A program made the position numbers and the translations under genes. A stretch of 64,000 bases of DNA from Escherichia coli (GTDB lineage: Bacteria > Pseudomonadota > Gammaproteobacteria > Enterobacterales > Enterobacteriaceae). This document shows positions 9,846 to 11,336 of the stretch, in pieces; position 1 is the first letter of the stretch; each line of letters begins with the position of its first letter. The stretch is from assembly GCF_036507355.1 (NCBI RefSeq), contig NZ_AP027877.1; one strand, 5' to 3'. The notes under the pieces are model-generated. The model saw only the letters and a list, made by a program, of their open reading frames with translations. It did not search any database and was not told the origin of the DNA.

Positions 9846-11336
9846 TTACAATAACCATTCCACGGGCAATATCGACGCCAGTCTGACCATAACCCGCTTC
9901 CAGAAACTGGTGGCGGGTTCTTTTTTGAGAATAATCTCTTTCTTTGCATGACGATCAACCCAGTTGATCCGTCCCCACCGGTCCAGACGGAGCTGCCAGG
10001 CCGCATCATACTGGCTCTGAATAAAGCGTTTATCAATTAACTGTGCCAGCGTTTCGCTCTCTATCACAAAGCCCATTTCAGTATTGAGCAATGTTGAACG
10101 CGGATCGAAATTGAAAGAGCCGATAAACACCGTTTTACCATCGATGCTAAAGGTTTTAGCATGCAGGCTGGTACCGGAATTACCGGTTATGCCGCGATCG
10201 TGTAACGTACTACTTTGTTCACGCGTCGGCTTGAGTTCATATAATTCCACGCCATAGCGGAGCAATTTTTTGCGCCAGCGCGCGTATCCGGCATGGACGA
10301 CAGCAACATCGTTAGCGGCAAGAGAATTGGTTAGGATCGCAATCTTTACCCCTTTTCTCACCATCCGTAAGAGTTGCGCCACACCTGCGCGTGTCGGTAC
10401 AAAATAGGAAGAGATAATATCGATGCGTTCACTGGGTGAGCCCATGATATCGAACAGGCGCTGCGGTAACAGTGAATGCCGTTTTGCCTTGCCCTCCCCT
10501 TTCGCCGGATCATCACTTAATAAACGTGTTTTCGCCCAGATAAGCGGCAACGTTCCATCAACCAGATGATTTATAAACGGACTGGATTCCATTTTGCGTA
10601 AGTAACAATGCGTCATGGCATCGTTATGCCAGGAGGCGGGTAACTCGATGCGATCCGCCATTTCACCTTCCGGGACATCCAGCACCTGCTGTAAGGGTGA
10701 AACCGATTTGCAATACCAGTAGCGGGCGAAATCATCGGCAACGTCCTCTACTACGGGTCCTATTGCCATGACATCTAAATCCGAAAAAAGTGGCTCTTCC
10801 CCTGCCCCAAAATAGGCATCACCAATATTTCGCCCCCCTACCAGCGTCACCACGCCATCGACAGTGAAACTTTTATTGTGCATACGGCGATTGAGACGGG
10901 AAAAGTCGGTGATATAACCAAGCGGACGCAGCAAGCGAAACGAGAAAGGATTAAAAAGCCGGACTTCAATGCGGGGATGGCTGTCAAGCAAGCGTAAAAT
11001 GTCGTCAAGTCCGGGCGTATTGTTGTCGTCCAGCAACAAACGGACGCGAACGCCACGCTTTGCTGCGGCTAACAGGGCGGAAAACAGTAACCGACCCGAC
11101 ATATCGTCCTGCCAGATGTAATACTGAACATCCAGCGTATGCTCTGCCATTTCGGCCAGACGATACCGGGCGGCAAACGCATCCAGACTTTTCTCCAGAG
11201 GGAAAAGACCACACTGACCGGGATGTTGCGAACACAGTGGCAGCACCGCGCTCGCCAGCCGGGGCAAATCATTCATCTCCTTGTTGGGTAAGGAGTCTTT
11301 CGTAGAGGTGGGCGTTTTCTTCATCATAACAGACAA
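9846..11336 (-). CDS. clsC: cardiolipin synthase C (phospholipase D family); true start probably internal to the listed ORF
   Basis: Two HxK-type PLD motifs ([13 protein letters not shown]..., [12 protein letters not shown]); the maximal ORF overlaps ymdB by 68 nt, so the real start is likely further in. Confidence 0.85.

Follow-up and report, generated by a model that had tools for sequence, protein, structure and literature searches.

The clsC start inside ymdB: an ancestral overlap in Enterobacteriaceae that Escherichia coli may still use

Introduction

Translationally coupled gene pairs classically meet in stop/start overlaps of 1, 4 or 8 nucleotides (nt), of the ATGA and TAATG types. Here we ask where translation of clsC, which encodes one of the three cardiolipin synthases of Escherichia coli, begins relative to the gene upstream of it, ymdB, in a 64,000-nt stretch of E. 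coli DNA (contig NZ_AP027877.1 of assembly GCF_036507355.1; this whole stretch is called the window, and all coordinates are positions in it). Junctions of the classical kind do occur at this locus among relatives of E. coli, namely in Citrobacter werkmanii (ATGA), in the Citrobacter freundii complex (TGA-T-ATG) and in a Citrobacter-like metagenome lineage, L087 (ATGAGTGA), and the junction sequence of E. coli could support the same arrangement. Unlike such pairs, most Enterobacteriaceae have the clsC start 55-70 nt inside ymdB, and termination-reinitiation is therefore impossible there. Comparison of relatives gives us firm grounds to regard the clsC start inside ymdB as real and ancestral at the level of the family, and codon choice in ymdB shows selection at synonymous sites that keeps the clsC frame open and the ATG in place across it. 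For E. coli itself, we lean slightly towards the same upstream cluster being a used, and probably the main, start of clsC.

Where clsC starts bears on an older puzzle about this gene pair. Tan et al. reportedly found in 2012 that ClsC requires co-expression of ymdB, and the substrate specificity of ClsC is said, in the title of a 2024 paper by Sawasato and Bogdanov, not to require the ymdB product. Several papers repeat the 2012 report that ClsC needs ymdB co-expression, and a 2021 review, noting that more ClsC is obtained “by an unknown mechanism” when clones include ymdB, poses this as an open question.

The closest described proteins outside the family are ClsO and the ClsC-like lipoprotein synthases of other Proteobacteria (PMC12846801), which are homologous enzymes of the phospholipase D (PLD) type with about 50% identity, and whose conserved part likewise opens with the TRLGRA-like motif. 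They carry an N-terminal signal peptide of about 40 amino acids (aa) with a lipobox, whereas enterobacterial ClsC lacks a signal peptide, its leader being short and hydrophilic.

For E. coli, the disagreement over the clsC start is already visible in public annotation, and as such is a known discrepancy of modest interest. The RefSeq models made by the Prokaryotic Genome Annotation Pipeline (PGAP; WP_001307714.1 and WP_021577325.1, 493 aa) start at ATG 11327 with a 59-nt overlap, as we favour here; they are algorithmic and have no experimental support, and what we add is comparative evidence. The curated model of K-12 MG1655 (b1046, NP_415564.2) describes the same gene with junction DNA identical to the window, but starts 60 nt downstream of the PGAP start, on a TTG that is not conserved in Escherichia albertii.

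Results

The ymdB-clsC junction

The last 19-22 codons of ymdB double as the 5' end of clsC, which is read in frame +1 relative to ymdB. An in-frame TAA at 11390-11388 bounds the clsC frame, which stays open from 11387 onwards and offers five in-frame start-type codons, listed here with the features that bear on them.

11802..11269, minus strand: ymdB coding sequence, 177 aa, an O-acetyl-ADP-ribose deacetylase with a Macro domain; stop codon TGA at 11271-11269.
9846..11327, minus strand: clsC coding sequence in its long form, 493 aa (the PGAP model), a PLD-family cardiolipin synthase; 59-nt overlap with ymdB.
11322..11336, minus strand: upstream start cluster, TTG(11336)-TCT-GTT-ATG(11327)-ATG(11324), within the ymdB codons for F-V-C-Y-D-E.
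11336, minus strand: TTG, giving 496 aa and a 68-nt overlap; the first start-type codon, which defines the maximal open reading frame (ORF).
11327, minus strand: ATG, giving 493 aa and a 59-nt overlap.
11324, minus strand: ATG, giving 492 aa and a 56-nt overlap.
11274..11276, minus strand: ATG, residue 21 of the ORF begun at TTG 11336, giving 476 aa and an 8-nt overlap (ATGAATGA).
11265..11267, minus strand: TTG, giving 473 aa, with a 1-nt gap after the ymdB stop; the curated K-12 MG1655 start (NP_415564.2).
11277..11282, minus strand: AAGGAG, a Shine-Dalgarno-like hexamer formed by the ymdB codons CAA GGA GAT (Q-G-D).
11287..11292, minus strand: ymdB Leu170-Thr171, CTT ACC, where CTG or CTA would be synonymous for YmdB but would read TGA or TAA in the clsC frame.

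The initial annotation of the window had the maximal clsC ORF starting at 11336, inside ymdB, which ends at 11269, with a 68-nt overlap; this is indeed so, but the codon at 11336 is TTG, and the first upstream Met codons are those at 11327 and 11324. Both of these depend on the choice by ymdB of TAT for Tyr158 and GAT for Asp159. The internal Met to which the same annotation pointed, residue 21 at 11276, is also present, 5 nt before the ymdB TGA, and does cut the overlap to 8 nt. PGAP chose ATG 11327 in every PGAP-annotated E. coli genome examined (EC1515, the K-12 derivative DH1, O157:H7 TR01, HS, Nissle 1917, an avian pathogenic E. coli strain, STIN_95 and a divergent lineage). A ClsC-specific NCBIfam model was not found in the library searched, which therefore gives no model-defined N-terminus.

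Start codons among relatives

Relatives were scanned with one genome per species (80 loci), and protein look-ups contributed Salmonella and the metagenomic Citrobacter-like contig; positions are given relative to E. coli TTG 11267 as 0. ymdB lies upstream of clsC in 25 of the non-E. coli loci, and abuts or overlaps it in most Enterobacteriaceae. No ATG, GTG or TTG occurs near the ymdB stop in Salmonella, Lelliottia, Leclercia or Enterobacter ENT03, and in Salmonella no further codon of these three kinds follows the ATGATG cluster. Siccibacter, Superficieibacter, Kosakonia and Pseudescherichia likewise have no ATG near the ymdB stop, and no start-type codon within 20 nt. The sole ATG candidates in all of these lie 60-72 nt upstream, in the ymdB codons for Cys-Tyr-Asp-Glu.

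Starts beside the ymdB stop are confined to a few taxa, the ATG at -9 to Escherichia, L087 and a few relatives, and the TTG or ATG at 0 to E. coli and Citrobacter; Salmonella, Enterobacter, Lelliottia, Leclercia, Kosakonia and others have neither, and a stop-proximal start is thus not conserved among relatives with the same gene pair. The clsC frame is closed in exactly two lineages, and in both of them a stop-proximal start is forced. C. werkmanii has lost the upstream ATG and has an in-frame TAA, leaving the ATG at 0 as the only possible start, in an ATGA overlap. In L087, Leu170 has become CTG, which puts a TGA in the clsC frame and closes the old extension, and the only possible starts are GTG(-12), ATG(-9), which makes the 8-nt ATGAGTGA overlap, and TTG(0).

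Two further cases lie outside the overlapping arrangement. In Phytobacter massiliensis, the intact ymdB stops some 110 nt short of the clsC ATG, and between the complete ymdB and clsC (locus L019, 1317-1500) sits the decayed 3' end of an older ymdB (RQIYLSCYDNKNARR, followed by its stop), which bears the clsC ATG in an open frame. This suggests that ymdB was replaced or duplicated there while the 5' end of clsC was preserved. The Erwiniaceae have no overlap, yet their leader is of similar length, with about 19 residues before the conserved TRL motif.

Selection on the overlap

Across 22 Enterobacteriaceae, the 3476 codons of the +1 frame of ymdB that precede the Cys-Tyr/Phe-Asp motif contain 136 stops, versus a single stop in 451 codons within the overlap, where 17.6 would be expected. 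When synonymous codons were resampled with the YmdB protein held fixed, the frame stayed open with a P of 0.2-0.3 per species for most, and it is actually open in 20 of the 22. Because the species are related by descent, these raw probabilities overstate the significance; about seven independent genera at a P of about 0.3 each still give roughly 1e-4.

Individual codons follow the same pattern. Tyr158 is TAT in all 14 species that have Tyr there, and TAC would abolish the clsC ATG; in species with Phe at this position, TTT or GAT-G yields TTG or ATG, and the upstream ATG is missing only in C. werkmanii. Glu161 is GAA in 22 of 22 species. Leu170 is CTT or CTC in every one of the 21 species (among the 22) with Leu there, because CTG or CTA before ACC creates a stop in the clsC frame. 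Third-position entropy of ymdB falls from 1.31 bits upstream to 0.87 bits in the overlap (Mann-Whitney p = 0.013). The frame is therefore open beyond synonymous drift and the start is kept through constrained ymdB synonymous sites, as in a genuine overlap. Just 5' of the TTG/ATG/ATG cluster (11338-11343), Tyr154 is TAC in 19 of 19 species and Val153 is the rare GTA in 11 of 14. Avoidance of stops does not account for the synonymous conservation of these two codons, and they may be part of the clsC initiation region.

Which start E. coli uses

In E. coli, the upstream start is probably ATG 11327 or ATG 11324, and the long ymdB-clsC overlap is most likely genuine, although our analysis cannot separate 11327 from 11324 or 11336. 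Published K-12 data may point the same way. Tetracycline ribosome profiling by Nakahigashi et al. 2016 (PMC4909307, Table S2 row 99) lists a new initiation site for the gene, under the name ymdC, at an ATG at -57, which is window 11324 and gives a protein beginning MKKTPTSTK. The signal over three samples was 0/30.1/16.1 at this site versus 0/0/5.7 at the annotated TTG, and the table entry has no second candidate, for example at -9 (PMC4909307). Initiation profiling had been proposed in the initial annotation as a check on the Met at 11276, and it places the signal at -57 and not at -9. The TRAINSPOTTER N-terminomics tables hold no entry for clsC, ymdC or ymdB.

Several observations weigh against the upstream start in E. 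coli. The profiling call was graded “not conclusive (5' ORF)” by its authors (PMC4909307), because the site lies within translated ymdB and elongating ribosomes confound it. The curated MG1655 record (NC_000913.3) uses TTG 11267, and the strong AAGGAG (-8.5 kcal/mol) is well positioned for that codon. ATG 11327 and ATG 11324 have no good Shine-Dalgarno sequence; the upstream cluster is preceded by a weak AGGU only (-3.8 kcal/mol), 5 nt 5' of TTG 11336 and 13-16 nt 5' of the ATGs, in a stretch that is AU-rich (60-66% A+U). Taken alone, the open frame of E. coli is not significant (P about 0.31 under resampling) and could be due to simple inheritance, and C. werkmanii and L087 prove that the N-terminal extension is dispensable. 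The leader peptide of clsC also appears weakly constrained, because common E. coli variants in it are non-synonymous for ClsC, and an untranslated stretch would look alike.

Variation within the species does little to separate the candidates. Of 5423 E. coli genomes, 3600 share the 88-nt junction of the window letter for letter, and all candidate starts are intact in every E. coli junction examined (the window, K-12 strain DH1, O157:H7 TR01, the divergent lineage and four variant strains), so that the four variant junctions are non-discriminating and the E. coli sequence, as read here, retains all start options. Common variants at 11288 (ACC to ACT) and at about 11308 (CAC to CAT) are silent in ymdB and change Pro to Leu and Thr to Ile in the clsC frame, and strains of the Nissle type have an additional Arg to Gln change just after the TTG. 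Leu170 is the only ymdB-synonymous site in E. coli able to create a stop in the clsC frame, and the absence of stops within the species is therefore uninformative.

Of the other accounts of the E. coli junction, the one that survives best, unlikely though still a live option, is dual initiation, in which E. coli would make a long ClsC (492/493 aa) begun inside ymdB along with a shorter form (473-476 aa) begun at the stop-proximal site, in a ratio set by the level of ymdB translation. It would fit the intact state of every start codon in all E. coli junctions examined and the occurrence of both end states among relatives, as well as the third profiling sample, in which there was signal at both -57 and 0. 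These profiling signals are weak, though, and confounded by elongation on ymdB.

It is also possible, if quite unlikely, that the curated model is right and TTG 11267 is the main start (473 aa), helped by ribosomes terminating on ymdB, with the upstream open frame an undecayed relic. In its favour is AAGGAG, the sole strong Shine-Dalgarno-like element at the junction (pairing with the 3' end of 16S rRNA at -7.3 to -8.5 kcal/mol), which lies 9 nt from TTG 11267 and, in its -8.5 kcal/mol pairing with the anti-Shine-Dalgarno, leaves a gap of 7-9 nt. The Shine-Dalgarno is thus at a functional distance for this codon but not for ATG 11276, and by the geometry of the ribosome-binding site alone TTG 11267 would rank first and ATG 11276 last. 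Position 0 is occupied by ATG in five species of the C. freundii complex and by TTG in Citrobacter sedlakii, and is the only possible start in C. werkmanii; in K-12, it gave a small profiling signal (5.7) in one sample. Against this, TTG is a weak start codon, its profiling signal is below that at -57, PGAP passes it over, and AAGGAG is built of the ymdB codons for Q-G-D and may be incidental. In E. albertii the TTG is TTA and AAGGAG is AAGGCG, while the ATG at -9 and the upstream ATGs are retained; the arrangement is therefore not conserved even within the genus.

Separately from these starts, an inverted repeat, CTCCTT-N7-AAGGAG (11277-11295), could pair the Shine-Dalgarno-like hexamer and is weakened in E. 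albertii. As a masking mechanism we rejected this hairpin, since at -6.2 kcal/mol its stability does not exceed that of shuffled sequence (z = 0.26). RNA folding of the upstream start region and of the whole 121-nt junction was also unremarkable against shuffled controls.

The initial annotation preferred ATG 11276 (476 aa): the long overlap would be only apparent, and ribosomes ending ymdB at the TGA at 11271-11269 would re-initiate 5 nt upstream across the 8-nt overlap. In its favour, ATG initiates more strongly than TTG, and coupled genes often share a short overlap. The codon is present in E. coli, its divergent lineage and E. albertii, and L087, with a stop in the old extension and a ATGAGTGA junction, shows that such an arrangement works somewhere. 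We nonetheless consider this start very unlikely in E. coli, and the least supported option. Inspection of the ribosome-binding site, which the initial annotation had also suggested, places AAGGAG for TTG 11267; the hexamer abuts ATG 11276 with 0 nt of spacing and so is unable to serve it, which leaves this codon no usable site. Nor is the codon conserved outside Escherichia and close relatives: it requires GAT for the ymdB Asp codon and is absent from C. sedlakii (GAC, hence ACG at -9, with TTG at 0), and Salmonella, Enterobacter, Lelliottia and Leclercia have no equivalent ATG. Neither the curated MG1655 annotation nor the PGAP annotations examined chose it, and the tetracycline profiling has no candidate at -9. 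Short-overlap coupling as such stands to this extent, that a stop-proximal start is workable in L087 (ATGAGTGA) and in C. werkmanii (ATGA); for E. coli, the conclusion that the long overlap is only apparent lacks support.

Finally, the overlap can hardly be an annotation artefact in which conservation of the C-terminal peptide of YmdB would incidentally leave the clsC frame open, for although conserved YmdB residues (C-Y-D-E-E-N-A-x-L-Y-x-R-L-L) dictate the ATG cluster and much of the extension, and the extension peptide varies freely, resampling with YmdB fixed leaves the frame open in only 20-30% per species against the 20 of 22 observed, genera without an alternative start could not make ClsC, and Phytobacter retains the segment without a functional ymdB reading through it.

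The N-terminal leader

In none of the N-terminal variants of E. coli ClsC did we find a hydrophobic signal. We also considered whether the “LPLC” that follows the TTG might be a lipobox, and rejected the idea: its Cys is N, R, T or K in other Enterobacteriaceae, and real lipoboxes occur only in distant ClsC homologues, much further upstream. A lipoprotein signal peptide, in which A-L-P-S-L-E-G-R comes after an L-x-G-C lipobox, is present in most of the non-enterobacterial homologues (L042-L082), at a distance of about 100-170 nt upstream from the match. The outer-membrane ClsO, a recent description (PMC12846801), fits this pattern, and such a signal would have been lost in enterobacterial ClsC.

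The locus and its neighbours

The minus strand of the window carries csgBAC, ymdA, ymdB and clsC, with mdoC/opgC convergent. The region from about 9.8 to 11.8 kb is E. coli DNA, with clsC and ymdB 99.5-100% identical to E. coli genes and junction DNA 100% identical to O157:H7 strain TR01 and to K-12. ClsC matches Pfam PLDc_2 in two stretches (E = 1.3e-40) and has a PLDc active-site motif match; as an orthologue of E. coli ClsC that has two PLD-like (HKD) domains, it is a ClsC-type PLD cardiolipin synthase. YmdB has a Macro domain match. A sigma-70 scan found no minus-strand promoter within ymdB.

The locus is absent from 3 of 5426 E. coli genomes. Of the 5423 E. coli records that match 9800-11850, 5 are typed as plasmid, and the locus is chromosomal elsewhere. 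In NZ_CP066759.1 (O157:H7 ECP19-198), an IS1203 element of the IS3 family splits the clsC-ymdB stretch. In Salmonella enterica SRR10092276 (L086, 1401-2301), the clsC ORF stops at 166 aa and Mu-like phage genes (Mor, GemA) come next, a sign that a Mu-like prophage may have inserted in clsC; the cluster of truncated ClsC proteins has 90 member sequences.

Discussion

We propose that clsC of Enterobacteriaceae initiates at the cluster TTG-N6-ATG-ATG (11336-11322), in the +1 frame of the last 20 or so codons of ymdB; this ancestral start is unbroken in E. coli and most likely in use there today. Initiation there may be independent of a Shine-Dalgarno sequence, on an AU-rich stretch that would be held unfolded by the ribosomes translating ymdB. 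The N-terminal extension of about 20 residues would then be a poorly constrained leader and not a functional module. We suggest that the Escherichia-Citrobacter clade gained starts beside the ymdB stop, an ATG at -9 and a TTG or ATG at 0, and that these new stop-proximal starts replaced the old one in at least two lineages. E. coli would be an intermediate, and may also make a short isoform. That clsC starts have migrated in stages, from an ancestral position about 60 nt inside ymdB through the appearance of new starts to closure of the old frame, and that the location of the start is the cis mechanism by which ymdB DNA, and not YmdB protein, boosts ClsC, is a combined picture that we find possible and put forward with some doubt.

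The last point returns to the relationship between the two genes. If the clsC start, along with its 5' context, is embedded in ymdB, a clsC clone without the ymdB 3' end would lose its native initiation region, a candidate explanation of the higher ClsC from ymdB-bearing clones. It would be a simple cis explanation of the ymdB effect, and may already have been addressed. The dependence of clsC on ymdB suggested by the initial annotation holds in that the two are linked in cis, while its form, that ClsC activity depends on YmdB, is reportedly dated, going by the title of the 2024 paper.

If clsC does start inside ymdB, constructs made from the curated 473-aa model would miss the native N-terminus and its 5' context, with consequences for the interpretation of expression and activity experiments. 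The design of clsC and ymdB knock-outs would be affected as well, because any deletion of the ymdB 3' end also hits clsC. The junction is also a clean counter-case to the habit of taking long overlaps for mis-annotations. Beyond ClsC reagents and annotation practice, this is an ordinary start-codon question of modest practical consequence, with a neat evolutionary pattern across the family.

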